Positions 162-44,778 of a DNA stretch of 64,000 nucleotides are shown here, piece after piece. The stretch spans positions 7-64,006 of the forward strand of contig JAMPHX010000001.1 in NCBI GenBank assembly GCA_023663205.1, written 5' to 3'. A model generated the notes under the pieces. The model was not told the DNA's origin. It made no database searches and saw only the letters and a list, made by a program, of their open reading frames with translations. The first letter of the stretch is position 1. Each line of letters starts with the position of its first letter. The position numbers were made by a program, and so were the translations under genes. The DNA is from Corallococcus sp. GTDB taxonomy: Bacteria; Bacillota; Clostridia; Christensenellales; CAG-314.

Positions 162-493
162 ATGAAATATTTAGACGGAGTAAGGCTTATTGTAGATAAG
201 CCGGAATATGCAAAGCGCGGATTAAAAAAGGGGGGGCTTGCGGAGCCATTGTGTTGCCCGAAATAAGAAATAATACTTTTGAGGTTGAATTTTTTGATTT
301 GAAAGACGATTTTGCCATAGAAGCATTTGTGGGAGACTTAGAGGTTACGCAAGAGGCGCCCGTTACAGACGAGGAAATATTGGAAGATTTGCCCAAACAC
401 GACCCGCGCTGGTGGTGTAAGGTGGAAAACGGCTACATACTCAACCTAAAAGGCGAACGCAAAAACAAAATACCCTACGACTACAATTCGTAA
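162..493 (+). pseudogene. DUF4926-like small protein, reading frame split at an A6G7 tract
   Basis: ATG at 162 has GGAGG 9 nt upstream and gives MKYLDGVRLIVDKPEYAKRGLKKGG..., stopping at 264-266. The listed ORF 251..493 is in another frame that is open from 200. One extra G in the run at 230-236 fuses them to ...GLKKGGACGAIVLPEIRNNTFEVEFFD.... From memory this resembles the DUF4926 pattern (L..PE.GLKKGD.GTIV...YEVEF). Confidence 0.5.
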
Positions 494-10886: not shown

Positions 10887-11090
10887 TCAATTGTCGTCGC
10901 GCAAGCCTAATATATAATCGGTGGAAACGGAATAGATTTTGGACAAAGAAATCAAAAATTCTATCGGCAAATCACGTACGCCGTTTTCGTATTGAGAGTA
11001 TGTGTTTTGCTTAACCATAAGTAACTCGGCAATTTTCTTTTGACTGTAACCGAATTCCACGCGCAATTCTCGTAATCTTTCTATTTTCAA
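10887..11090 (-). CDS. XRE-family helix-turn-helix transcriptional regulator
   Basis: 67 aa. YSQKKIAELLMVKQNTYSQYENGVRDLPIEFLISLSKIYSVSTDYILG is a typical HTH_3/Cro-C1 fold pattern. Confidence 0.8.
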   Translation of the reverse strand: MKIERLRELRVEFGYSQKKIAELLMVKQNTYSQYENGVRDLPIEFLISLSKIYSVSTDYILGLRDDN

Positions 11091-11351: not shown

Positions 11352-11360
11352 GGGGGGGGG
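11352..11360. repeat. G9 homopolymer in the leader of the membrane-protein gene
   Basis: Nine consecutive G read directly (cGGGGGGGGGt). Confidence 0.9.
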
Positions 11361-11540: not shown

Positions 11541-12101
11541 ATGAACACAACACTTGACAAAAAGACGCTTATCTTGACTATTGTAAAATTTGCAATAGCG
11601 ATACTTATGACTATACTGTTTGTGTTTCTTCCCATTGGGGAAGGAGCCAGTTTCGGTCTTTACATCTACTTATATATTGCTGCTTTATTTGAAGGTTCAA
11701 TCGAAGTTTTGATGTTTCTTCCGACTATGATAGCATTTTTGGTATTCGTTGTATTTTCGTTGGTAAAAAGCATTATGATATTTGTCGATATGCTAAAAGT
11801 AAACAGCGGCAAAATAAAGTCGGAAGACGTAAATTGGAAAAAGAAGTTTAAGTTGGCATCCGCTTTGCTTTATTTTATTTTCTTTATGGTATCATTTCTG
11901 ATGCTGTTTAGACAATATACATTCTCTTGCCCGCTTACATACATAGCGATAGTATTCTTTGCAGGCGATATGGTTGTTACTACCCTGCTCAAAAAGCAAC
12001 TGGGTATTTCCAAGAAGCAAAAAGGCGGCAAAGGCGCGCAACAAGCAACTGCTCCCGCAGCAACGCAAAGTGCGGAAAATACCGATTCCGAACAAAAATA
12101 A
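11541..12101 (+). CDS. Small polytopic membrane protein, unknown function
   Basis: GGAGG SD 7 nt upstream. About four hydrophobic helices and a charged, low-complexity C-terminal tail (KKQKGGKGAQQATAPAATQSAENTDSEQK). Confidence 0.7.
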   Translation: MNTTLDKKTLILTIVKFAIAILMTILFVFLPIGEGASFGLYIYLYIAALFEGSIEVLMFLPTMIAFLVFVVFSLVKSIMIFVDMLKVNSGKIKSEDVNWKKKFKLASALLYFIFFMVSFLMLFRQYTFSCPLTYIAIVFFAGDMVVTTLLKKQLGISKKQKGGKGAQQATAPAATQSAENTDSEQK

Positions 12102-12240: not shown

Positions 12241-12719
12241 TTGCACTAAAAATTATATCTTGTTTGTAAGTTGCTTTTGTATTCAGGAATATGCGGTACG
12301 TGCTGCGGTTTTGCGTGTGATTGCATTGCCGTAGATACAAAAGCCGCCGACTGTTTGCACGCGGTAAAGGCAAAGGCGCTTCGGATATTTGCCACGGTAT
12401 GCAAACTTTGTCTTGCGTTATGTCAAGTGACAATTGCTTTGGCAAAGTTACGATAACGCCGACCTACACGCAGCAACGGCAAATAAAGAAACGTCTTTAT
12501 ACAAAGTTTGTTTTGCATTGCATAGGGAAATAACGGTGCTTTAATAGTTTCGGTAATCTATCCCTTTTCCTCCCCCCCCTACAAAAAAATTGTCTTTGCG
12601 GTAACAAATCATTACCGAATAATCGGCAAAAGGTTACGGTGTTTCCTTGTATTGCATATATATGTTATTGTTTTGGGAGAATTGTTACGTACAAATACAC
12701 ACAATCCGATTGGGACATA

Positions 12720-18158: not shown

Positions 18159-21100
18159 ATGACAAAACGCAAAATATGTATACTCTTTGCCGTGCTGGTG
18201 TTGGCAGTCAGTCTTGTTGCCGTTACGGCGTGTCAAGACCCGCAGCCGACAGACAACTATTGGACGGTGACGTTCTACGTCAGCGGCAGTAAGTACGGCG
18301 AAGAAGTAAAGGTGTTGAAAGGCCGCCGTATAACTGCGGCAAGCATACCTGCCGACCCGACTTTCGGCGACGGAAGTGTATTTATCGGTTGGTACACAAG
18401 CGCTACGGAGTTTTCCGACGCTAACAAATGGGACTTTGAAAAGGGCAAGGTAACCCAAAATCTCGATTTATATGCGGGTTATCGTGTAATTTCCGCAGAA
18501 CCTACCGATTTGCAGATGGCGCAAGAAGCCTGCACAAGCAAATTGGTGTGGACTCAACGCGTAATGGGCACAGATTACACGGTTTCTCTCGGGGGGGGGC
18601 GTAACGCTTGAAGGCACAACTTCGTTTGATGCGGCAAACTTTACGGTAACCTTCACTCCGACTGATGCTCCCAAAGGCGGACTGTACGACGTAACGGTAA
18701 CCGACGCGGCGTACACAGACAAAAGCGCAAGCGCAAGCGGTTTGCTGTTCTGCGGCGACGGCACGCTAAACAATCCGTATTTGATTGCCACGGCATTGGA
18801 TTTTACTGCAATAAGCCAAAACAGTGTTGAACAGAACACTTATTACAAACTGTACAAAAATTTGACTGTATCTACCGATTACGACGCGCAGTCGGGCAAA
18901 GTGTTTGACGGTATTCTCGACGGCGACGGCAGAACGGTAACCATCGATAACGGTAATGCCGGATTGCTTGCGGAAGTGGGCGAACACGGCAGAGTTACCA
19001 CAGTAAATATAGCCGGCTCTGTATCTGCGCTCAAAGACAGCGTTGGCGCGTTGGCAAACGTAAACAGAGGGCGCGTTGAAAAAATAAACGTCACGGCAAA
19101 CGTAACTTCCACCGCAGGAACTGTCGGTACAAACGGACTTGACGATTTGCTTACGAAAGGCAAAGGCATTGCCGGCGGCGTTGTAGGCACAAACGAGACC
19201 ACCGGTGTTGTTTACAATTGCAAAATTGTTACACAAAGTTCTTCTGACGGAGTAGTCAAAGCCTCTATTGGCGGAGGCTGCATTGTAGGTTTCAACAAAG
19301 GCACGGTTGAAAGTTGCGTAAGCGAAGGCGCATTCGGCGCTTGGAACTCAACCGAATCGGGCGGCAAAACTTTATCCGCATATTCGTACGCCGGCGGAGT
19401 AGTAGGCATAAATGCCGGAACCGTCAAGGAATGTTCGTTGACAGGCTCGGGTAAAATGCTTGCGCAGCGTTACACCGACGCTTCGGCAGTAATAGAGGGA
19501 ACCAACCACATTGCATTGGGCGGAATAGTCGGATACAATATGGAAGGCGCAATTGTGGAAAAATGCGAGTACTCCGGTATACGCGTTCACGGCGACGAAG
19601 CAATAGGCGGTATTGTCGGCATAAACGACGGCACTGTCAAAAATTGTATGTCCGAAGGCGTGTTCAAAGGCGATACGGGCGAAAGTTACGTAGGCGGACG
19701 TACGGACGTCGGCGGTATTGCGGGACGTATGGAAGCCAACGGTATAGTCGAAAATTGCATAAATACGGCAAATGTATTCTGCTATACGGAAGGTACTGCA
19801 TACAGCATTGCAAGCAAGTCAAATAACAGCGTTTACATCAGCGTAAATTCCAACAGAAACAGTCTTGCTGCCAATCCCGAGGCGGTGACTCTTACCGCGC
19901 CGCAAGGTACGGGCAACGTAAATGTTGAAGAAACATTCGACGGGAAGACGGACGTTAAACTTGCGGAAAAGTACCTTGCAACGGTAAATGCGGAAAGCGC
20001 ATTTGCATTTGACTCCGCGGCAAATACAATCAAGATAGTAACTACGCAAATACCCGAGTTGTCATTGACGGTAACGGTACACGCCGACGGCAAAACCGAG
20101 GAACAAACGGTATACGAAACACCGTCTACAATTTCCGCGCCGAGCAAATTCGGCTACGTGTTCAAGGGCTGGTCGCTTGCGGAGGATGGGGAAATAGTCT
20201 TTGCCAAGGGAATGCAGATTTCTTACTACGACCTCAAAGATTTGCGCGGAGAGGGCGGCAAGGTAGACCTCTACGCCAAATACGAACAGCGCACAATAGA
20301 TAACAATGTTTTGAACGTGTCCATTTGGAACAACTCCAAGGGTGCGTGGATTACCGAAACGCAAATCGACAAAATCAAAACCGACTTTGCAGCATATCTT
20401 ACGGAAAAAGGCATTGACGTTGCGGACAAGGAAATCTATTGGATTGTGGAAAAGGATGTTTCGTCGGTTGCCAACTTAGGCGCATCGGTAAATGCCGCCG
20501 AAAACATAGATATAGTAGTAGCATGCGGTACAAATATAACTTCTACCGGCAAGGTAGAGGTGCTTACCCGCAAGGAAATTGTCTCCGAGGATTATGCGTC
20601 TTCCGGCAGACTTGCCGCGTTGCTTACCGAAAACGAACTTGCAATGCACTTGTTCAGTATGCTGACGGGCGCGGAAAACGGCAAGGCGGAAGTTACTCTT
20701 GTGGGAGATACAACCGTCACCGAAACGCTTGACGGCATATTTGCCAATGCGGCAACGGCTCCCGCCGTCACGCCGGCGGACGGCTTCAAATTTATCGGTT
20801 GGGCAACAACGCAGGACGCAACGGAAGCGCAGGTTACCGGCACAATAAATTACACCGCGGTAAAGGATTATCTTGAACAAGGCAAAGTTACTTTGTACCC
20901 AGTATTTGAAAAGTTGCCCGAAACCGACGACAATTCGTTGGTAGTAGTGTTTTACGCAAAGTTTTTCGATGAAGATAAGGTGGAACCGTTAAAGGCGGCT
21001 TTCCAAACTTACTGCACGGAAAACGGTATCGAAGCGGGTCCTCTTACATTCCTTTGCGAAGTTACAGGCAACAACGCCGCTTTCAACACCTATCTTGTAG

Positions 21101-21339
21101 GGTTGGAGAGTGGATTTGACGTTGCCGTAGGCGGTAAAGCAACATCCAAGGCTCCGATAGAATGCTTCGAGCAGAAAGCGGACGAAATAAACATCACGTA
21201 TGTTTACGGTATGAACGCCGCTTCGGAAAGACCCGCGGTGTTTATGAACACGCGCGATATTGTCACGGCATTCAAAGCATTCCTTCAAACGGAAAGCGCG
21301 TCGGCTGTTTTGAACCCCGCGCAAACCGCACAAATTTAA
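18159..21339 (+). pseudogene. Surface lipoprotein with InlB-B/Flg_new-type repeats and six GLUG motifs, frame broken at a G9 tract
   Basis: Lipobox signal MTKRKICILFAVLVLAVSLVAVTAC. ORF 18159..18611 and the 865-aa ORF overlap in different frames across G9 (18591-18599), and G8 would give one 1,059-codon ORF. GLUG-like repeats are present (GGVVGTN...NC, GGIVGYN...KC, GGIVGIN...NC, GGIAGRM...NC), as are Listeria-Bacteroides repeat patterns (FIGWYT, FKGWSL, FIGWAT). Confidence 0.7.
18591..18599. repeat. G9 homopolymer inside the lipoprotein gene
   Basis: Read directly. The ORF-track translations on both strands (LGGGRNA; TPPPERN) confirm nine G/C. Confidence 0.9.
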
Positions 21340-21424: not shown

Positions 21425-23662
21425 ATGACAAAATTCAAAAGTTTTTTTATAAAAATCGGAAATGCGATAGGCGGTTGGTTTAAAAAGAACACCAAATGGA
21501 AAATTATTTTGTGCGTTGCCGTTGCCGTTGTGCTTTTGGGCGGTTTTTTGGCAAGCATGATTCAGACGGACTTTTTCAAGGTAAAAGTCTATTCGCAAAC
21601 AATCGAAACGGAACCCGTAACAAGCAAAGGGGAAGCGCTTTATGAGCAGACGGGCGTAAAAAGTTGGGTTACGGCAGATATTTACAGACCCAAAGCCGCT
21701 TCGGCGGAAAACCCCGTGCCGTTGGTGTTTGTCGTGCCCGGTATTCAGCGTACCAAGGAAACTCAGGCGTCTTTTTGCATAGAGTTATCTCGCCGCGGTT
21801 ATGCAGTAATATGTATCGACCCGTACAATCAGGGCGAAAGTTCTTCCTCGTACGAATCGCAGTCGGCGACGCAGGAGGGCTACGGGCTGTTTGCATGGAT
21901 GGATTATTTGTTTGAGGACGACCAATACACTCTCAAAGAGGAGTTTTCGTGGATTGACCCTGCGCGAATAGGCGCGTGCGGTCACAGCGCAGGCGGTAAC
22001 GCCTGCCAAAAGTTTGCCGAAAGAGAAGGTAAACTTGCCGTCAACAACAAGAAACCTTGCAGAATAAACGGCATTTACATAACCGGTTACATCAGAGATT
22101 TTACGTGGACAAACACAATTTGCAATGTGGGAATAAGTTATTCGCAAAACGATGAGGGGGCATTTCAAAACAAGACCGCTCAACGCAAAAATGCCATTAG
22201 GGAAAAACTTGCAAAGGGTGAAACTCTTACAGAAACGGAAGAATGGTATCTTACGGTAGGTAATGCCGACCTAAGGTATGCCGACGAATCGATTGCGCTT
22301 GTAAATTATCAGTTAAAGCGTATTCCGGTTGCCAACGGACAACAGAAAATTTCTTTGGACAATTACGACTACGGCGATGAGGACGCAGACGGCTACGTTC
22401 GTATAGGTTACGGCTACGGCAATCAATATGACGGCACTTACGTAATTATAAACAACGAAACTACTTTGCACGCGCTTCAACCTTACGACGGTGCTACCCT
22501 TACCAATCTTTGCGCGTTTTTTGAAATATCTTTTGACGGAGAAAACGCCCTTGTGCCCTCCGCACACGCTTGGTTGTGGAAAGAAATAGGCTCGGGTATG
22601 ACGCTGTTCGGCGGATTTGCGTTTATTTGCGCGCTGTTTGTTTTGCTGCTCGATACCAAGTTTTTTGCTTCGCTCAAAAAACCCGTTCCCAAACGTACGC
22701 CTAATCAAGGGGTAAAGGGAAGAGTGAGTTTTTGGCTGTCGTTTGCGGTATCGGCCGTTGTCGCGTGCGTGCTGTATATGTCCTGCGTTCACCTGAGCGT
22801 CAAATGGTTCCCCGACGCCGCGGGAAGTATTCAAACTTGGGTATTTCCGCAGCGGTTTACCAATGCCGTAATGCTGTGGGCGGTGTTTAACGGACTTATC
22901 GGCGTGGCTATCTTCTTTATCACTTGGGGAATAGAGTTTGCAATCGATTACTTCAAGGCAAAAAAAGCGCCCGCAAGTACGATAGCCGATAACGGTGCGG
23001 AATGCGAAATAGTATGCGAAACGGAATCTGCTGCTTGCTGCGGCGTACAACCGTCGGATGACGACGGTGCTGTTTCCGCTGTCAAGAAGGATTACCTTTC
23101 GCGCTTCGAGCCGCTTAAACTCGGCGGTATCGATATACTCAAAACATTGCTTATGGCTGCAATACTCGTAGCGTCCTTCTTTGCATTGGATTACGCAATA
23201 TACGGGATTTTCCACGTGGATATGCGTTTCTTCTTTGTATCCGCACGGGTTTCTTTCAGTTGGCGCGCTGTACTGTCAATGCTAATGTATGTGCCGATAT
23301 TCTTTGTGTTTTACTTTTCCAATTCATTTCGCGTCAATTGCTGTATGCGCCCCGAAAATTGGAAAGAATGGCTCAGCCAACTTATTGCCGTTTTGGGCAA
23401 TACATTGGGACTTGTGGCAATACTGTTTGTTCAGTACATACCGATGATAAGCGGCGGACAGATAGGCTATCTTTCCACCGAAGGTCCCGAATGGTTGTTT
23501 GTAAACTTGCTGTTCAGCATAATCCCCATGATGATTGCGCTACCGCTGTTCAACAGATTCTTCTTCAACAAGACGGGACGCGCTTGGCTTGGACCCATAG
23601 TAACGTGTTTTATATTCATTATTATGACGGGCGGCGCTACGACAATGTATTTTGCATTGTAA
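21425..23662 (+). CDS. Alpha/beta-hydrolase domain fused to a polytopic membrane domain
   Basis: N-terminal TM anchor, then a hydrolase fold with nucleophile elbow GHSAGG. The C-terminal ~350 aa contain about eight hydrophobic helices, interrupted by an acidic/Cys insert (ECEIVCETESAACCGVQPSDDDG). Confidence 0.75.
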   Translation: MTKFKSFFIKIGNAIGGWFKKNTKWKIILCVAVAVVLLGGFLASMIQTDFFKVKVYSQTIETEPVTSKGEALYEQTGVKSWVTADIYRPKAASAENPVPLVFVVPGIQRTKETQASFCIELSRRGYAVICIDPYNQGESSSSYESQSATQEGYGLFAWMDYLFEDDQYTLKEEFSWIDPARIGACGHSAGGNACQKFAEREGKLAVNNKKPCRINGIYITGYIRDFTWTNTICNVGISYSQNDEGAFQNKTAQRKNAIREKLAKGETLTETEEWYLTVGNADLRYADESIALVNYQLKRIPVANGQQKISLDNYDYGDEDADGYVRIGYGYGNQYDGTYVIINNETTLHALQPYDGATLTNLCAFFEISFDGENALVPSAHAWLWKEIGSGMTLFGGFAFICALFVLLLDTKFFASLKKPVPKRTPNQGVKGRVSFWLSFAVSAVVACVLYMSCVHLSVKWFPDAAGSIQTWVFPQRFTNAVMLWAVFNGLIGVAIFFITWGIEFAIDYFKAKKAPASTIADNGAECEIVCETESAACCGVQPSDDDGAVSAVKKDYLSRFEPLKLGGIDILKTLLMAAILVASFFALDYAIYGIFHVDMRFFFVSARVSFSWRAVLSMLMYVPIFFVFYFSNSFRVNCCMRPENWKEWLSQLIAVLGNTLGLVAILFVQYIPMISGGQIGYLSTEGPEWLFVNLLFSIIPMMIALPLFNRFFFNKTGRAWLGPIVTCFIFIIMTGGATTMYFAL

Positions 23663-23705: not shown

Positions 23706-24962
23706 ATGTATATGAAGTTTTTAAAAAAAATTGCGCTGTACGTTGCATTGATTGCCGTACTTTGTATGTCGTTTGCTTTGGCGGGTTGTTTTGCTCCGCG
23801 AGGTATCGAAGGCGCAACCGACAAAAAGGTAATCGAAGGCGACGACCTTGTTGCGGAAAAACCCATTGTAAAGTGGGAAGGACGATACGAGTACAAAGAC
23901 CGACACGTATATTTGTATCACACGGCAACGGGATTTACCGTGGAGTTTTACGGAACCGGTTTGCTTGTAAAGTTCAACGCTGACGTTGCCGACGGCGGTG
24001 CAAAATCGCGTCAGCCCTACTACAATTACGCCGTTGACGGCGAAGTGCTTCCCAACGCCGACGAGGGCAGGACATTCTGCTTGGAACAGGGCGAACAAAC
24101 CGTGGTTTTGGCGGAAGGTCTTAAAGAGGGTAAACATACCGTCAAGTGTCTGAAAATGAGCGAACCGTACGACGCGGTCACTTCGGTCATTTCTATGGAA
24201 ACCGACGGACAGTTTATTTACCGTGACAAAGATGACGACGACGGAGCCTACCGCTTCATGGTTGTGTGCGCTTCAGGCGGTTCGGGACACGGCGCATTAG
24301 GGTATTCCGAACAGAACAAATGGTGCGCGCGCACAACAGCCAACAGCAGCAGTTTGCACGCTTTCAACTATCTTACGGCAAGAATGTTCGATGCCGACGT
24401 GCAGTTTGTGGCGACAAGCGGCTGGGGTGTAGGTTGGAAGAAAAACTGCGGCAAATCCATTGCGGAAATATTGGATTACACGGGCAATCTGCCCGCCGAT
24501 AACGTCACTGCCGCCAAACAAACAGCAAAGTGGGATTATTCCGAGTGGGTTCCCGACGTAATACTGTTTAATATAGGCGGCAACGATACCACCAAGAGCG
24601 ATTTTGACTTGCAGTATTATCAGGCAAAAGCGGTGGCTATGGTAAAAGCACTGCACGAAACTTACCCTAATGCCGATATGATTTGGACGCATACCGGCAG
24701 TAAGGCGGGCACTTACGCCGTTTCCGCGCTTACCGATGCCGGAATAATGAAGGAGGGGTATTTGAAGGTGTTATCTTCCATGCCCAACGTCGGCGAGGGA
24801 GTAAGCGGAGCAGGAACGTACGGAGCAAACGGACACAGCAGCATAAAGACGCATATAGACATTGCCGATTTACTTGCGGAAATGCTTACGGAAGCGGGTT
24901 ACGGCAAGGAACGCGAAAATATTGCGTTTGCGGATTACGAAAGTATTCTCAAAAAGTTTTGA
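23706..24962 (+). CDS. Lipoprotein, SGNH/CE2-like esterase architecture with divergent catalytic motifs
   Basis: Lipobox MYMKFLKKIALYVALIAVLCMSFALAGC. N-terminal beta-sandwich-like region (WEGRYEY...GFTVEFYGTGLLVKF), then a GxND block (FNIGGNDT). The canonical GDS and DxxH blocks are not obvious. Confidence 0.55.
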   Translation: MYMKFLKKIALYVALIAVLCMSFALAGCFAPRGIEGATDKKVIEGDDLVAEKPIVKWEGRYEYKDRHVYLYHTATGFTVEFYGTGLLVKFNADVADGGAKSRQPYYNYAVDGEVLPNADEGRTFCLEQGEQTVVLAEGLKEGKHTVKCLKMSEPYDAVTSVISMETDGQFIYRDKDDDDGAYRFMVVCASGGSGHGALGYSEQNKWCARTTANSSSLHAFNYLTARMFDADVQFVATSGWGVGWKKNCGKSIAEILDYTGNLPADNVTAAKQTAKWDYSEWVPDVILFNIGGNDTTKSDFDLQYYQAKAVAMVKALHETYPNADMIWTHTGSKAGTYAVSALTDAGIMKEGYLKVLSSMPNVGEGVSGAGTYGANGHSSIKTHIDIADLLAEMLTEAGYGKERENIAFADYESILKKF

Positions 24963-25362
24963 TTTTTGCTATGTCGATTTCAAAGCGGCAAAGGCGGCAG
25001 ACGGATTTGAGAGAGTATTGCTGTAAAACTTGATTTTTCAAAATTAAGTAAAAGCAAAAACATTGCTAAGACAAATAAGCGGGTTCATATCGAAGTGAAA
25101 TGCGCCTCCAAAGTTGTCATACTTTTGGGGTACGCCACAAAGTATGAGTCCGTTTTTTTGCTTGTAATAAAACTGTAATCAATGCGGATTACGCTGCCGT
25201 CAAAAGTAAAATATAAACATTATTTTTTCGATATTCCACATTTTGAACAGCGATGTGTTATACTGTATAAAGACGCGCGGCGCAAGATTTTGTCAGTGGC
25301 AAGTCAAATGTAAAACGGCATATATTCGTGCCGTTCGTGCGCGCGTAAGAGGGGGGAAATTT

Positions 25363-27258
25363 ATGTCGGAAAAAGCGTTGAAAACGCAATTGTCGGCGGA
25401 GGACAGGCAGTTTAACAAAAACAAATGGCTGTTTAGCATAAGCGGAATAGGCAGAGATATGTCCTATCAACTTATATCGTCCTTTTTGCTGATATACATA
25501 CAGTTCGGCGTTACGCTGAATGTTGCCGAGTTTACGACGATAAGTATGATTATCGGTATCGGCGGAAGAATTTGGGATGCCATTAACGACCCGATGATGG
25601 GCGCTATTATCGAAGGCACTCATATGAAATTCGGCAAGTTTAAACCGTGGATTTTGATAGGCGCGGTAACGTGCGGCTCGGTAATAATAGCGATGTTCAA
25701 CATTCAGGGGCTTGCGCATTGGAACTTTGTTGTATTTATGTCGGTAATGTATTTGCTGTGGGAAACTACCTTTACAATGAACGATATAGGTTATTGGTCG
25801 ATGCTTGCAAGTTTATCCAGCAAGAAGGAACAGCGCAACAGCGTAACAATGTTGACGGTTGTATTTGCAGGCATAGGCGCGTTTGTGGCGCAAGGCGGGA
25901 TATCCTTCCTTTACCCCGGTAACGTCCGCGACGCATTCAGATGGATTTCCGTGGGAGTTGTCGCCGTATTTGTGGTAATGCAGGTAATATGTGCGGTATT
26001 TGTCAAGGAACGTCCGCGCACGCAAATGGAACAAAGCGAAAAAGTTTCGCTCAAACGTATGTGGAACACAATCAAGAAAAACGACCAAGTGTTGTGGATG
26101 ACCTTGTCAATGTTATTCTACAACATAGGCAGTTCGCTGCTTGTCGGTCTTGCGTACAACCTTTATTACATCGAAATCGGTTACAATGGTGAAACAATAG
26201 TGTTTATTGCAATTTTCGGTATAGTAAACGTGGCTACGCAGGCACTGTATCCTATGCTTTCGCGCAAACTCGGCAGACGCAAGTTGCAGTTAATCAGCAT
26301 AATTGCGGCGTGCGTAGGTTACGTAGGCATTGCCCTTTTGGGTTGGGGCGGAGTAATACCGTTTAACCTTATTACGCTTTCGGTATTCGGAATATTGGTA
26401 TTTGCGGGACAGGCGCTGTATTACATGACCTGCATAATCAATATGACCAACTGCGTGGAGTACAACGAGTACAAATACGGCGAACGCAACGAAGCGGTGG
26501 TTTCCACACTGCGTCCGTTTATGGCAAAGTTTGCCGACGCAATCAAGATGGGTATAGTAACGCTTGTATTGGTTGTATCGGGGGTTTTCCTGCTTAGTAA
26601 CAACATATCTACGATTGAAGCGCAGAGAGATTACTTTGCAAAGAATATGGACGGCGCAGCCCGCGTAGAATACGTTACGAGTTTGCAGGATTATCTCAAA
26701 CGCCTTCCCGATAAGGACGCGGCAAACTACGACGAATTGATGAATCGACTTAACGAAGATTTGCAAAAAGACCAAACGCTTGCGCAATATCAAATAGAAG
26801 TCAACTATCTGGAAGCGGTAAGTCAATTGCGCGTGTTGGACGCGGAAGGCAATATTGTAGGTACGATAGCGGATGTCAATGCCGCTATGTTCGGCAGCGG
26901 CAATTACAGCCTTTCCATTTCAGGCGACGGATACAATGTGGCGGATGACAACTTTTTGAGCAAAGGCAATACGTCAATGCGGTTGTGGCTGCGTGCAAGC
27001 GTGACGGTTGTGCCCATAATAATGATTGCAATTTCGTTGATTATTCAACGCAAAAAGTTTATCATAGACGAAAACAAGTATGACGAAATGCTCGAAGAAA
27101 TAGAGCGCAAAAAACTTCTCGCGGCAGAATCTCCCGAACAAACGGTAGTTTACACGGAAAGTTCTGCCGATAGGGCGTCGGAAGATACCGCGCAGACGGA
27201 ACAAACGGTTAACCGTGACGGCTCGGATGCAAAGCAGGATGAAAACGGAGAACCGTAA
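25363..27258 (+). CDS. GPH/MFS-family glycoside-pentoside-hexuronide:cation symporter with a large C-terminal insertion
   Basis: SD AGAGGGGGG. N-terminus FSISGIGRDMSYQL and DAINDPMMG (the GPH signature D-x-x-x-D-P), followed by 11-12 helices. About 125 soluble residues are inserted before the last helix, and the tail is acidic. Confidence 0.8.
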   Translation: MSEKALKTQLSAEDRQFNKNKWLFSISGIGRDMSYQLISSFLLIYIQFGVTLNVAEFTTISMIIGIGGRIWDAINDPMMGAIIEGTHMKFGKFKPWILIGAVTCGSVIIAMFNIQGLAHWNFVVFMSVMYLLWETTFTMNDIGYWSMLASLSSKKEQRNSVTMLTVVFAGIGAFVAQGGISFLYPGNVRDAFRWISVGVVAVFVVMQVICAVFVKERPRTQMEQSEKVSLKRMWNTIKKNDQVLWMTLSMLFYNIGSSLLVGLAYNLYYIEIGYNGETIVFIAIFGIVNVATQALYPMLSRKLGRRKLQLISIIAACVGYVGIALLGWGGVIPFNLITLSVFGILVFAGQALYYMTCIINMTNCVEYNEYKYGERNEAVVSTLRPFMAKFADAIKMGIVTLVLVVSGVFLLSNNISTIEAQRDYFAKNMDGAARVEYVTSLQDYLKRLPDKDAANYDELMNRLNEDLQKDQTLAQYQIEVNYLEAVSQLRVLDAEGNIVGTIADVNAAMFGSGNYSLSISGDGYNVADDNFLSKGNTSMRLWLRASVTVVPIIMIAISLIIQRKKFIIDENKYDEMLEEIERKKLLAAESPEQTVVYTESSADRASEDTAQTEQTVNRDGSDAKQDENGEP

Positions 27259-29211: not shown

Positions 29212-29222
29212 CTACCTACAAT

Positions 29223-29316
29223 CCTATCAAGAGTGTCGGAGAGACGGACTCGGTGAAGACACAGCAACCTTTTAGATTAGGTGCTAAATTCCGCAAAGGT
29301 AAACTTTGGAAGATGG
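29223..29316 (+). promoter_or_regulatory. SAM-I (S-box) riboswitch
   Basis: Conserved S-box strings CTATCAAGAG, GGAGAGAC, CGGTGAAG, CAGCAACC, GGTGCTAAATTCC and GAAGATGGG (P1 closing). Located upstream of metK, as expected. Confidence 0.85.
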
Positions 29317-29341
29317 GCGACAATTTAAACGTAAGTGTGTC

Positions 29342-29369
29342 GTCCCGTCTTATTGACGGGACTGTTTTT
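29342..29369 (+). terminator. Riboswitch expression-platform terminator
   Basis: GTCCCGTC (29342-29349) pairs with GACGGGAC (29355-29362), followed by TGTTTTT. SD ACGGAGG and ATG 29386 follow. Confidence 0.75.
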
Positions 29370-29385
29370 ATACGGAGGCAGAATT

Positions 29386-30567
29386 ATGAAAGAAAACAAA
29401 CGCAGATTTTTTACTTCGGAAAGCGTAACCGAAGGGCATCCCGACAAAATGTGCGACCAAATAAGCGACGCAATACTCGACGCACTAATCGCTCAGGACC
29501 CAGACGCGCGCGTGGCGTGCGAAACGGTTGTCTGCACGGGCACTGTATTTGTTATGGGGCAAATCAGCACGACGGCAACTGTCGATATACCGGCAATAGT
29601 TCGCAAAACCGTTCGTGACATCGGTTATACGCGCGCCAAGTTCGGATTTGACGCCGACAGTTGCGGAGTGATAATTTCACTTGACAAGCAATCACCCGAT
29701 ATTGCTCTGGGCGTTGACAAATCCGACGAGTACAAAACACGCGGCGAAGTGTTGGACATTTACGGAGCGGGCGACCAAGGCATGATGTTCGGCTATGCCT
29801 GCAACGAAACGCCCGAATATATGCCTATGGCAATTACATTGGCGCAAAAAATTGCCCGACGTCTTGCGTATGTGCGTAAGCAGGGCTTATTGGATTATTT
29901 GCGTCCCGACGGCAAATGCCAAGTTACGGTGGAGTACGACGGCGACAAACCCGTACGCGTAGACACGATTGTACTGTCCACGCAGCACGGAAGCGACGTA
30001 AGCAGCGACGTGATAGCGCGCGATATGATAAATTTTGTCATACGCGAGGCTGTGCCGCTGTCGCTGTTGGACGAGTGCACCAAATACTACATAAATCCCA
30101 CCGGCAGATTTGAAATAGGCGGTCCCGCGGCAGACAGCGGGCTTACGGGAAGAAAAATAATAGTCGATACGTACGGCGGTTACTGCGCGCACGGCGGCGG
30201 CGCGTTTTCGGGCAAGGACCCTACAAAGGTGGACAGAAGCGCAACGTATTTTGCGCGTTACATCTGCAAAAACTTGGTTGCGGCAGGGTTGTGCGACAAG
30301 GTTCAACTGCAAGTTTCCTATGCCATAGGCAGGTCAAAACCGGTATCGGCGGACGTAAATTCTTTTGGAACGGGCAAGTTGTCCGACAAGGTTCTTTCCG
30401 ACATCGTAACGCAGGAATTCGATATGCGTCCGCGTGCAATAATAGAGCAATTGGATTTGCAAAAGCCCATTTACTTGCAGACGGCAAGTTACGGACATTT
30501 CGGCAGGGAAGGCTTTTCTTGGGAAAAGTTGGATAAGGTCGACGCTCTCAAAAAGTATTTGTCGTAA
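29386..30567 (+). CDS. metK: S-adenosylmethionine synthetase
   Basis: [25 protein letters not shown] and [16 protein letters not shown]. Start taken at MKENKRRFF downstream of the riboswitch. Confidence 0.95.
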
Positions 30568-42236: not shown

Positions 42237-42339
42237 CGGCAACAAAACATACGCCTGTCGAAATAAAATGCGCGTTCCAAAGGTTATTTTACTTTGGGGC
42301 ATAGTTCCAAAGGCATTTCGACAGAGGGGGGGAGGGAAA

Positions 42340-44778
42340 ATGAAAAAAGAAAAAACGCCTGTCGAGCGCATCGAAACATCCAAAGGCGGATTGACGTCCG
42401 CGCAGGTTGCCGAACGCACGGCGGCAGGTCATACCAACTACGTCAAAAAGGTTGTTGGCAAATCGTATCTGTCGATATTTGTTTCCAATATTTGTACCTT
42501 TTTCAATTTGCTGGGTATACTGATATTCATTTTGATGCTGTTTTGCGGAAGCGTGGAAAATATGATGTTTTTCGTTATAATCTGCGCAAATACCGCAATA
42601 GGAATTTTTCAGGAAATCCGCTCCAAAAGAGCGGTGGAAAAACTTTCGCTTGTGCAGGAACCGTCGCTGACGGTTGTGCGCGACGGAGTAGAAGCGGAAA
42701 TTAAATCGCGCGATTTGGTAATAGACGACGTAGTGTTATACCAAACGGGCAAGCAAATATGCGCCGACTCAATAGTAATAGAGGGCGAAGCGGAAGTTAA
42801 CGAAGCCCTTTTGACGGGGGAAAGCGATTCCGTCAAAAAGAAGGCGGGCGACAAATTGTTTTCCGGTTCGTACGTCGTTTCGGGCAGTTGCTATGCGCGC
42901 TGCGACAAGGTGGGCGAAGATAACTACGTCGAACAACTTTCGGCAAAAGTCAAAAAGTTCAAAAAACCCAACTCTCAACTTATGAAAGGCATTACGTCGA
43001 TAATAAGAGTAATAAGTTGGATTATATTTCCCTTGGGGCTTGCTACGTTTTTGACGGGAGGCGCGCTTGCAGACGGCAAGTTTGCTCCGATAGAGCAGGT
43101 TCAGGGCGCGCTCAAAGTCGCGGCGGGCTCCATGATAGGTATGGTTCCCAGCGGAATGGTACTTTTGACAAGCGTCGCTCTTGCCGTTTCGGTAATACGT
43201 CTTGTCAAAAAACACGTCCTCGTGCGCGAGTTGTACTGCATAGAAATGCTTTCGCGCGTGGACACGCTGTGTCTTGACAAAACAGGCACCATCACCGACG
43301 GCACAATGACCGTAGAAGAAGTTATACCTCTCAAAGATAATTTGAATATAGCGCAATTGATATCTTCAACAATTGCCGCAACTAAGGACGACAATATGAC
43401 GGCGGTTGCGCTCAAAAACAAATTCGGAGAGGACGATGTAATACCGGCAATTGTGGCGCTGCCATTCTCGTCCAAACGCAAGTTTTCCGCGGCAACGCTT
43501 ACGGGCGGCAAAACCGTCGCGATAGGCGCGGCGGAATTTATGACCAAAAATATTCCAGCGGCGTATTCCCAAAAGGCGGACGCGCTTTTGCGGAAGGGGC
43601 TCAGAGTTCTCGCCGTTGCGCTTTCCGACAAACCGATAGAAAACGACGCAGTGGAAAACCTCGAAATAGTCGCCATTGTCGCGCTTTCCGATACCGTCAG
43701 AAGCGACGCGGCGGAAATAATCGGTTGGTTCAAAAACAACAACGTCGCAGTAAAGGTTATTTCGGGCGACAATCCGCTTTCCGTTTCGGTAATAGCGGCA
43801 AAGGTCGGCGTGGAAAATGCCGACAAATACATTTCGCTTGACGGACTTACCGACGAGGAAGTGGAAAAGGCAGCCGCCGAGTACACGGTATTCGGCAGGG
43901 TTTCGCCCGAGCAAAAGGCGCTTCTCGTCAGGTCTATGAAGGCGGCGGGTATGACGGTTGCAATGACGGGCGACGGCGTCAACGATATACTTGCCATGAA
44001 GGAAAGCGACTGCGCAATTACAGTCGGCTGCGGAAGCGACGCGGCAAAGAGCGTTGCGCAACTTGTGCTTACCGACAACCAATTCGGTTCCATGCCAAAG
44101 GTAGTGGCGGAAGGCAGACGGGTTGTCAACAACATACAAAACAGCAGTTCGCTGTTCTTGATGAAAACGTCCATGACGGTGTTTACAACGCTGCTTGTGC
44201 TATGTATTCCGGGGTATGCGTATCCCTTCCAGCCGCAGCACCTGTATGCAATGGAGTTTTTTGTAATAGGCATAGCCTCCTTCCTGCTTGCATTGAAGCC
44301 CAACACAAACCTTATCAAAGGAAACTTTGTGACCAATACTCTCAAAAGCACGCTTCCGAGCGGAATAGCGATGTTTTTGTCGGTGGCAATGACGTACGCA
44401 TTTATGAACGTACTCGGCATACAAAATAATCCCGATGAGATAAGCACCGTGGCAATGTTCTCAATGACGGCAACGGGCGTTTTGGCGCTGTTGATACTGC
44501 TGTTTCCCTACGACAAGATAAATGCCGCAATTGGCGCGCTGTCGGTAGTTGGTACGGTTGCCTGCTACTTTGTGTTCCCGTGGGCGCTGGGGTTGCTAAA
44601 CCAAATACTCGGCAAGGGCGAACCCGACCCGATGTTTGTAGCAATACCTGATAATTGCATATGGTTTATTGCAATCAACGCATTGGTAATGGCTGCAATA
44701 ATAATCTGCGGCAAGTTGGTAATGAGGTACATCGAAAAGAAAAAGGAAGCAAAAACAATTGCGGAGGAAACAAAATGA
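42340..44778 (+). CDS. Cation-translocating P-type ATPase
   Basis: TGES, the phosphorylation site DKTGTIT, and TGDGVNDILAMK. About 10 TM helices. Start at MKKEKTPVE, preceded by a GGGGGGGAGGG SD. Confidence 0.9.
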   Translation: MKKEKTPVERIETSKGGLTSAQVAERTAAGHTNYVKKVVGKSYLSIFVSNICTFFNLLGILIFILMLFCGSVENMMFFVIICANTAIGIFQEIRSKRAVEKLSLVQEPSLTVVRDGVEAEIKSRDLVIDDVVLYQTGKQICADSIVIEGEAEVNEALLTGESDSVKKKAGDKLFSGSYVVSGSCYARCDKVGEDNYVEQLSAKVKKFKKPNSQLMKGITSIIRVISWIIFPLGLATFLTGGALADGKFAPIEQVQGALKVAAGSMIGMVPSGMVLLTSVALAVSVIRLVKKHVLVRELYCIEMLSRVDTLCLDKTGTITDGTMTVEEVIPLKDNLNIAQLISSTIAATKDDNMTAVALKNKFGEDDVIPAIVALPFSSKRKFSAATLTGGKTVAIGAAEFMTKNIPAAYSQKADALLRKGLRVLAVALSDKPIENDAVENLEIVAIVALSDTVRSDAAEIIGWFKNNNVAVKVISGDNPLSVSVIAAKVGVENADKYISLDGLTDEEVEKAAAEYTVFGRVSPEQKALLVRSMKAAGMTVAMTGDGVNDILAMKESDCAITVGCGSDAAKSVAQLVLTDNQFGSMPKVVAEGRRVVNNIQNSSSLFLMKTSMTVFTTLLVLCIPGYAYPFQPQHLYAMEFFVIGIASFLLALKPNTNLIKGNFVTNTLKSTLPSGIAMFLSVAMTYAFMNVLGIQNNPDEISTVAMFSMTATGVLALLILLFPYDKINAAIGALSVVGTVACYFVFPWALGLLNQILGKGEPDPMFVAIPDNCIWFIAINALVMAAIIICGKLVMRYIEKKKEAKTIAEETK

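Follow-up and report, generated by a model that had tools for sequence, protein, structure and literature searches.

A nine-guanine tract splits a GLUG/InlB-repeat surface lipoprotein gene in an uncultured clostridium: a candidate slipped-strand switch

We analysed a 64,000-nucleotide (nt) stretch of DNA, here called the window, which is part of a 64,030-nt contig of a metagenome-assembled genome (MAG) held at NCBI, and in which a run of nine G residues (G9) interrupts a gene for a surface lipoprotein with GLUG and InlB-type repeats. In our view the interruption is best explained as a real and reversible frameshift, produced by slipped-strand mispairing in a poly-G tract that is young and specific to the lineage, with the gene switched OFF in the majority allele, a reading to which we give a probability of about 0.6. 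The evidence for it comes from the relatives of the gene, from the composition of the tract, from a second broken G run in the window, and from the position of similar tracts in a sister MAG.

At the junction the two parts of the gene stand in different frames (Table 1). The 5′ open reading frame (ORF), whose translation starts with MTKRKICILFAVLVLAVSLVAVTAC, runs through the G9 tract, which has a C on both flanks, and ends at a TGA (18609–18611) that begins 10 nt past the last G, three codons on. The downstream frame contains FLSGGGVTLEGTTSFDAANFTVTFTPTDAPKGG in its open part and reads FLSGGGVTLEGTTSFDAANFTVTFTP across the tract, and the TTG start listed for it at 18742 is mechanical only. 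The TGA is reached only because of the frameshift. When the tract is varied in silico between G5 and G12, the product is either full-length or truncated: G8 yields 1,059 amino acids (aa), G5 1,058 and G11 1,060, whereas G6, G7, G9, G10 and G12 yield only 147–151, both OFF frames meeting a stop within one to three codons of the tract. When in frame, the tract encodes Gly-Gly-Gly (GGG GGG GGC, residues 145–147). In the alignment with orthologues, the upstream frame matches as far as YTVSL (ending at 18590) and the downstream frame from VTLEG onwards (starting at 18601), and since the alignment changes frame between these two points, the switch is confined to the G9 tract itself. A first-pass annotation of the window had described the nine G residues, the stop 10 nt beyond them, the frame of the 865-aa ORF as already open from 18565, and the fusion of both parts by one G fewer or two more, and in all of these it was accurate. 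In the NCBI record, both halves are named InlB B-repeat-containing proteins, although they belong to one frameshifted gene.

A search with the fused protein retrieved about 70 homologues of 1,000–1,350 aa (86–100% coverage, E = 0 to 1e-200), all of them single uninterrupted ORFs through the junction and all with a lipoprotein N-terminus. The closest full-length relative (P0003; 65% identity, 1,053 aa) is present on 25 contigs and has the same gene order as the window, namely a LysR regulator, a malic enzyme, the gene itself, a protein of ~740 aa and an esterase of the CE2 family. Because the relatives are all single ORFs, and because positional orthologues lie in the same cassette, the two fragments share the ancestry of one gene, and the window carries this one gene, whose break falls precisely in a lineage-specific tract, and not two genes. 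The single surface lipoprotein of ~1,059 codons with GLUG and InlB repeats that had been proposed at the outset is thereby upheld, and the orthologues are not the two separate, tract-less genes that would have spoken against it. Shorter homologues (870–1,007 aa) were considered as parallel frameshifts and rejected, as the lipoprotein N-terminus is retained in each of them and the differences are confined to the C-terminal repeats. Downstream of the break 912 codons are open, and every column that is invariant across 33 homologues is kept. The gene therefore looks otherwise intact, and the lesion is probably recent or reversible rather than a sign of decay.

The N-terminus of the protein carries the lipobox VTAC (…LVAVTAC), with a cysteine (Cys25, codon 18231–18233) that is invariant in the 33 homologues, followed at residues 36–106 by a Pfam Flg_new domain, the Listeria–Bacteroides or InlB B-repeat (E 3.6e-13, 49.9 bits, cut-off 27); these are the lipoprotein signal and the single repeat that had been read in the short ORF before. 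The Pfam GLUG family also scores above its cut-off (31.1 bits, cut-off 20.5), and the product, when fused, is predicted to be a Flg_new/GLUG surface lipoprotein of ~1,059 aa. An AlphaFold model built on the 33 homologues (mean predicted local distance difference test score of 84) places in order a signal helix, the B-repeat, an immunoglobulin-like sandwich (~116–197), a long GLUG beta-helix, a second B-repeat and two alpha/beta modules. The 150-aa fragment holds the first half of the immunoglobulin-like beta-sandwich, the remainder of which lies in the 3′ part. The best fold matches in the PDB are the IgA1 protease of Streptococcus pneumoniae, which also has the GLUG motif, and the InlB B-repeat, and the sequence matches there are the InlB B-repeat and the N-domain of a Treponema sialidase. 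In the model, residues 145–147 form a beta-hairpin turn between strands 140–144 and 148–150, and in the alignment the tract site is a loop of variable length across homologues, so an extra glycine should be tolerated at this place.

The tract exceeds what either composition or codon usage would give. Under a first-order Markov model, the window has three G/C runs of at least 8 nt where 0.45 are expected, and two of at least 9 nt where 0.10 are expected, while runs of 5–6 nt are scarce (18 vs ~40 expected). The G/C 8-mer hits number five, against 0.8 in dinucleotide shuffles, of which 4 in 100 reach five. Synonymous recoding of the gene with the codon usage of the window produced a G run of at least 8 nt in 1.3% of 3,000 trials. 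Among the Gly codons of the window GGG is the least used (6.9%), and the other GG or GGG peptides of the gene are encoded without runs in 11 of 11 cases.

The orthologues indicate how the tract may have arisen. Where the in-frame form of the window has CTC GGG GGG GGC GTA ACG CTT, orthologue DNA has TTA GAC GGC GCA CCC TTG or ATC GAC GGT GCG GAA GTT. Compared with its two closest orthologues, the gene has one codon more in the G8 form and would be of equal length with G5, which suggests that the run grew by slippage.

The sister MAG GCA_023665205.1, of which 42.8 kb were sampled, has exactly two G/C runs longer than 5 nt, and both are G9; they occupy positions 183–191 of L011 and 12268–12276 of L012, within JAMPEJ010000004.1 and JAMPEJ010000005.1. 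The first lies within a TTGACA-N18-TATAAT promoter (12/12 matches; L011, 168–197), 60 nt upstream of the gene for a 1,293-aa LRR_5 lipoprotein (lipobox LVAC), and the second within TTGACA-N19-TATAAT (L012, ~12261–12291), upstream of the gene for a 181-aa lipoprotein. A tract in the length-critical spacer of a perfect lipoprotein promoter is the textbook layout of a transcriptional phase switch, and the two sites are candidate phase-variable promoters, judging by their layout. Since G9 tracts in promoter spacers are hard to ascribe to an artefact, they raise the prior for the G9 of the window being a real, functional hypermutable tract. The tract set of the window comprises the lipoprotein gene, a cytoplasmic-looking DUF4926 gene described below and two intergenic sites; in the sister MAG both G9 tracts (2/2) fall in lipoprotein promoter spacers. 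A sample of 162 kb from the genomes of nine other relatives (11 loci) contains no run of at least 8 nt and one run of 7 nt. As a separate observation, the LRR_5 lipoprotein has seven glycines (PGGGGGGGQ; L011, 258–380) directly after the lipobox, which are encoded without a long G run, and there is no G run of 6–8 nt in L011.

As for the host, the best hits of its leucyl-tRNA synthetase (78–79% identity) place the contig among uncultured Clostridia, going by names such as Clostridiales or Clostridia bacterium, Candidatus Limihabitans and, for several other MAGs, 'Corallococcus sp.'. The G+C content of the window is 46%, and genes for sporulation (SpoIIE, YtfJ) are present in sister MAGs that share the label. 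The label 'Corallococcus sp.' (Myxococcota), which is attached to this contig and to several sister MAGs, is evidently wrong in the public record.

A second gene of the window, encoding a DUF4926-like protein, is also frameshifted at a G run, this time within A6G7. The Pfam domain DUF4926 spans the junction and scores 32.3 bits with a G5 repair and 25.7 bits with G8. Of the 310 homologues found, the best 120 are mostly ~109 aa long (107–128) and cover the whole query, the two exceptions being the 79-aa fragment of the window itself and one outlier of 138 aa. A single Gly stands at the site in 13 of 13 aligned homologues, so that G7 corresponds to an ancestral-length G5 plus two; the closest homologue has AAA AAA GGC GCG CGC GGA, compared with AAA AAG GGG G[GG]CT TGC GGA in the window. 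Of this gene, the NCBI record has just the 79-aa tail (NC350_00005), entered as a hypothetical protein in its own right. With this second frameshift, G runs are unstable beyond the 'adhesin' gene, either in the genome or in its assembly. Ten A/T runs of 7–8 nt fall within supported genes, and none of them disrupts the frame. When ORF pairs were sought that an insertion or deletion of one nucleotide at any run of at least 6 nt would join, the G9 site was the sole credible case, the other pairs being antisense or alternative frames of supported genes. Frames are thus broken at G runs only and not at homopolymers of all base types, which is not the pattern of a general homopolymer error.

These observations bear on the possibility of an assembly or base-calling error, in which the true tract would be G8, the gene would be intact and expressed, and one G would have been miscounted both here and at the A6G7 run. 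Long G runs are the classic place for length miscalls, the two genes are broken in opposite directions relative to G8 (+1 for G9 and −1 for G7), as random noise would do, the downstream frames of both are perfectly intact, and the source is a MAG whose curation is imperfect, as its label attests. However, the error would have to be specific to G, given that the A/T runs are unaffected, and would have to prevail in the consensus even at a run as short as G7. A real additional Gly codon would be needed in both genes all the same, and it is absent in the ~13 DUF4926 homologues and in both close orthologues of the lipoprotein, so real growth by slippage is required even under this explanation. It also leaves the precise location of the G9 tracts of the sister MAG in lipoprotein promoter spacers without an explanation, and it sits poorly with GCA_023667435.1, a MAG of the same submission batch in which 37 kb sampled contain no G/C run of at least 6 nt. 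We therefore regard an error as an unlikely account of the locus. The second G-run frameshift, the lack of breaks at A/T runs and the promoter-spacer G9 tracts of the sister MAG together tip the balance towards real hypermutable tracts, and G9 is probably the true majority length.

Several observations weigh against a functional switch. At the junction no G run is present in the orthologues P0003 (six contigs) and P0002, nor in L003–L009, L015 and L016, and in L018 the whole gene is free of G/C runs of at least 6 nt. The tract is young and lineage-specific, and not one that the gene has conserved. The first-pass annotation had offered the choice between a phase-variable locus and an assembly error; of this, the single gene and the break in the tract stand, and the balance has moved towards a real tract, whereas the notion of a long homopolymer as part of the design of the family fails, the tract being absent from every orthologue examined. 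G9 tracts came from just two MAGs, both belonging to a single submission batch. A search around the two intergenic runs of the window found neither a consensus promoter nor an Rfam family; the best candidate for a promoter-spacer role there is on the minus strand, with 8 of 12 positions matched and a spacer of 19 nt, and was rejected. Conspecific sequence was sought by a variable-G-run pattern in a metagenome contig collection, with no matches, and by protein-guided scans of genome and metagenome contig collections, which gave distant relatives or nothing and no conspecific sequence. Both fragments fall in single-member protein clusters of a 15-billion-protein collection, and an exact look-up of the 865-aa product returned no contig on record. 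The DUF4926 protein is small, highly conserved and apparently cytoplasmic, not a typical contingency gene, and undirected instability of G runs, or an error, would account for its break no less well than design. Finally, a DUF2310 zinc-ribbon gene (940–1635) has an in-frame TAA at 1393–1395, and its joined product covers Pfam positions 31–251 of 255 with 88 bits, compared with 60 bits for the first part alone, so ordinary pseudogenes exist in the window. A further frameshift near the N-terminus of this gene (931–943, with an upstream ATG at 878 and a good ribosome-binding site) was considered unproven, since the Pfam score rose by little, from 88.2 to 90.8 bits, when the upstream ORF was added.

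Such findings could also point to a plain recent pseudogene, that is, accidental slippage in a dispensable gene, for example through weak mismatch repair of G runs, with no useful switching. The lineage-specific tract would fit this, as would the disruption of two further genes, DUF4926 by a frameshift and DUF2310 by a stop, within the same 64 kb, and the tracts exceed the ancestral-length G5 by two and by four, as if they had drifted after inactivation. Against this stands a downstream part of 912 codons that has acquired no second lesion and has kept all family-invariant residues, in front of intact cassette partners. A G9 tract reverts at a high rate, which makes an irreversible loss physically unlikely for as long as the tract persists, and the sister tracts in perfect lipoprotein promoters point to use and not to decay. 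Taken together, we consider simple loss of the gene to be quite improbable.

Identical Gly codons permit +1 re-pairing of the tRNA, and long homopolymers permit transcriptional slippage. Full-length protein might for this reason be made constitutively at a low level from the G9 form, by a +1 ribosomal frameshift on GGG GGG GGG or by an RNA polymerase that drops one G; the shift that is needed is indeed +1, and the stop of the 0 frame lies just three codons downstream. Programmed recoding sites are normally conserved, whereas the tract occurs in no orthologue, and no stimulatory element was identified. Recoding of this kind, which we hold to be very improbable, is in any case compatible with switching at the DNA level and not exclusive of it.

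A slipped-strand switch, which we favour, would have arisen as follows. Replication slippage would have lengthened a short run of G residues, in a stretch that encodes a loop, into a hypermutable poly-G tract. The allele that was assembled, and is taken as the majority one, has the out-of-frame length G9, so that translation would end at 150 aa with a lipoprotein stub, the 2.7 kb behind the stop would remain untranslated, and the gene would be OFF. Since the gain or loss of a G in a tract of G8–G9 is much more frequent than ordinary mutation, cells with the G8 or G11 form should appear and revert continuously, the two ON forms differing by one Gly in the hairpin turn. The locus would then act as a slipped-strand ON/OFF switch, in which case the OFF state may also be polar on the esterase genes downstream. 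Switching itself is what the tract leads us to expect, and it may be selected rather than incidental.

The mechanism has well-studied counterparts. Homopolymeric tracts at the 5′ end of a gene that frameshift act as reversible inactivation switches, as in inlA (PMC2831843), and where simple sequence repeats are enriched towards the N-terminus, this has been interpreted as tuning for phase variation (PMC3315296). In the 5′ poly(A) tract of inlA of Listeria monocytogenes, frameshifts truncate the protein and revert at ~1,000-fold the frequency of point mutations (Orsi, Bowen & Wiedmann 2010, PMC2831843). Like inlA, the gene described here encodes a Firmicute surface protein with a homopolymer near its 5′ end, and the protein shares the InlB-type B-repeat fold. 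In contrast, the run is poly(G) at codon 145 instead of poly(A) at codon 8, the protein is lipid-anchored and not LPXTG-anchored, and reversion, measured for inlA, is a prediction for the gene described here.

The locus also resembles the poly-G/C contingency loci of Campylobacter jejuni, Helicobacter, Neisseria and Haemophilus, where slipped-strand mispairing acts on homopolymeric tracts in genes for surface structures. It has in common with them a G tract of 8–9 nt early in a surface-protein gene, one in three tract lengths in frame, OFF frames that stop at once, and an excess of long G runs. It differs from them in its host, an uncultured spore-forming gut clostridium of 46% G+C, in a tract that is not conserved in orthologues, and in the location of the gene in a carbohydrate-esterase cassette and not among genes for capsule, lipooligosaccharide or flagellar modification. 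The G9 tracts of the sister MAG, which lie between the −35 and −10 boxes in spacers of 18 and 19 nt, recall the promoter-spacer tracts that control variable lipoproteins of the Vlp and Vsa type in Mycoplasma; the tract of the window, unlike these, is in coding sequence and is poly-G instead of poly-A, and the lipoproteins are unrelated. As a protein, its closest counterparts are surface proteins with Flg_new or GLUG motifs, such as the S. pneumoniae IgA1 protease with its beta-helix (PDB 6xjb), which is among the best fold matches; both Pfam domains score above their cut-offs in the protein of the window. In contrast to that enzyme, it has no M26 protease domain and is anchored by a lipobox, and no solved structure is a clear relative of its C-terminal alpha/beta modules.

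Table 1. Coordinates of the interrupted lipoprotein gene and of other features of the window
Feature	Position	Strand	Remarks
G9 homopolymer	18591–18599	+	C on both flanks; site of frame change
5′ fragment of lipoprotein gene	18159–18611	+	150 aa as assembled; separate NCBI protein MCM1042599.1
3′ part of lipoprotein gene, +1 frame	18565–21339	+	912 open codons; listed ORF 18742–21339, 865 aa; NCBI MCM1042600.1
DUF4926-like gene, ~109 aa, split at A6G7 run (224–236)	162–493	+	ORF 162–266, and frame open to 493
Intergenic G9	11352–11360	+	between XRE-type helix-turn-helix gene (10887–11090, minus strand) and gene for 186-aa membrane protein (11541–12101)
Intergenic C8, then TAC and A7	12572–12579	+	in ~540-nt non-coding stretch upstream of cysteine-synthase-like (PALP) gene
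745-aa protein	21425–23662	+	N-terminal membrane anchor; weak alpha/beta-hydrolase (esterase-like) matches
CE2-family carbohydrate esterase	23706–24962	+	itself a lipoprotein (MKFLKKIALYVALIAVLCMSFALAGC); third gene of the cassette
MFS_2 sugar transporter (glycoside-pentoside-hexuronide type)	25243–27258	+	adjoins the cassette

The lipoprotein gene is the first of a three-gene cassette, in which it is followed by a membrane-anchored hydrolase and a CE2 lipoprotein. The same cassette was found again in four more genomes (L009, L015, L016 and L018); the second protein, of ~700–765 aa, occupies the same position in these and in L003, and the CE2 orthologues are 400–418 aa long. The cassette is often found beside a malic enzyme gene. 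By its gene content it looks like an uncharacterised Gram-positive module for surface glycan deacetylation, of which the lipoprotein, judging from this context, is likely the surface binding or scaffold part.

Some further features of the window are recorded here. An A8 run (23723–23730), a 5′ homopolymer currently in the ON frame, lies in the signal-peptide codons of the CE2 gene (MKFLKKI). A S-adenosylmethionine riboswitch (RF00162, 73 bits) at 29221–29319 precedes a 410-aa ORF (29335–30567), and near the lipoprotein locus the Rfam search gave no RNA families. A G7 run is found in the G-rich ribosome-binding region (42326–42340, GGGGGGGAGGGAAA-ATG) of a P-type ATPase gene, and the position of this region before the ATG places the true start at 42341, and not at the listed 42190.

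The mechanism as such is known (PMC2831843; PMC3315296), and what is new is the host lineage, together with a hint of a poly-G phasome centred on lipoproteins. Tentatively, and at less than even odds, we suggest that in these uncultured spore-forming gut Clostridia tracts of the G9 class, located in the −35/−10 spacers of consensus promoters or early in coding sequences, switch a number of surface lipoproteins stochastically, including the product of the lead gene of the cassette described here. Up to now, the phase variation described in Clostridia has mostly involved invertible DNA. If such a phasome exists, the glycan-foraging hardware of these bacteria would be phase-variable by slipped-strand mispairing. 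The poly-G tracts in MAGs of this group merit inspection at the level of reads, and not automatic 'correction'. If the tract of the window does switch, a lineage of commensal gut Clostridia would be using a homopolymer mechanism of the pathogen style to vary its surface lipoproteins, and polarity within the operon would extend the variation to a glycan-esterase system of the surface. Such variation could aid the evasion of phages or antibodies, or serve as hedging between substrates.

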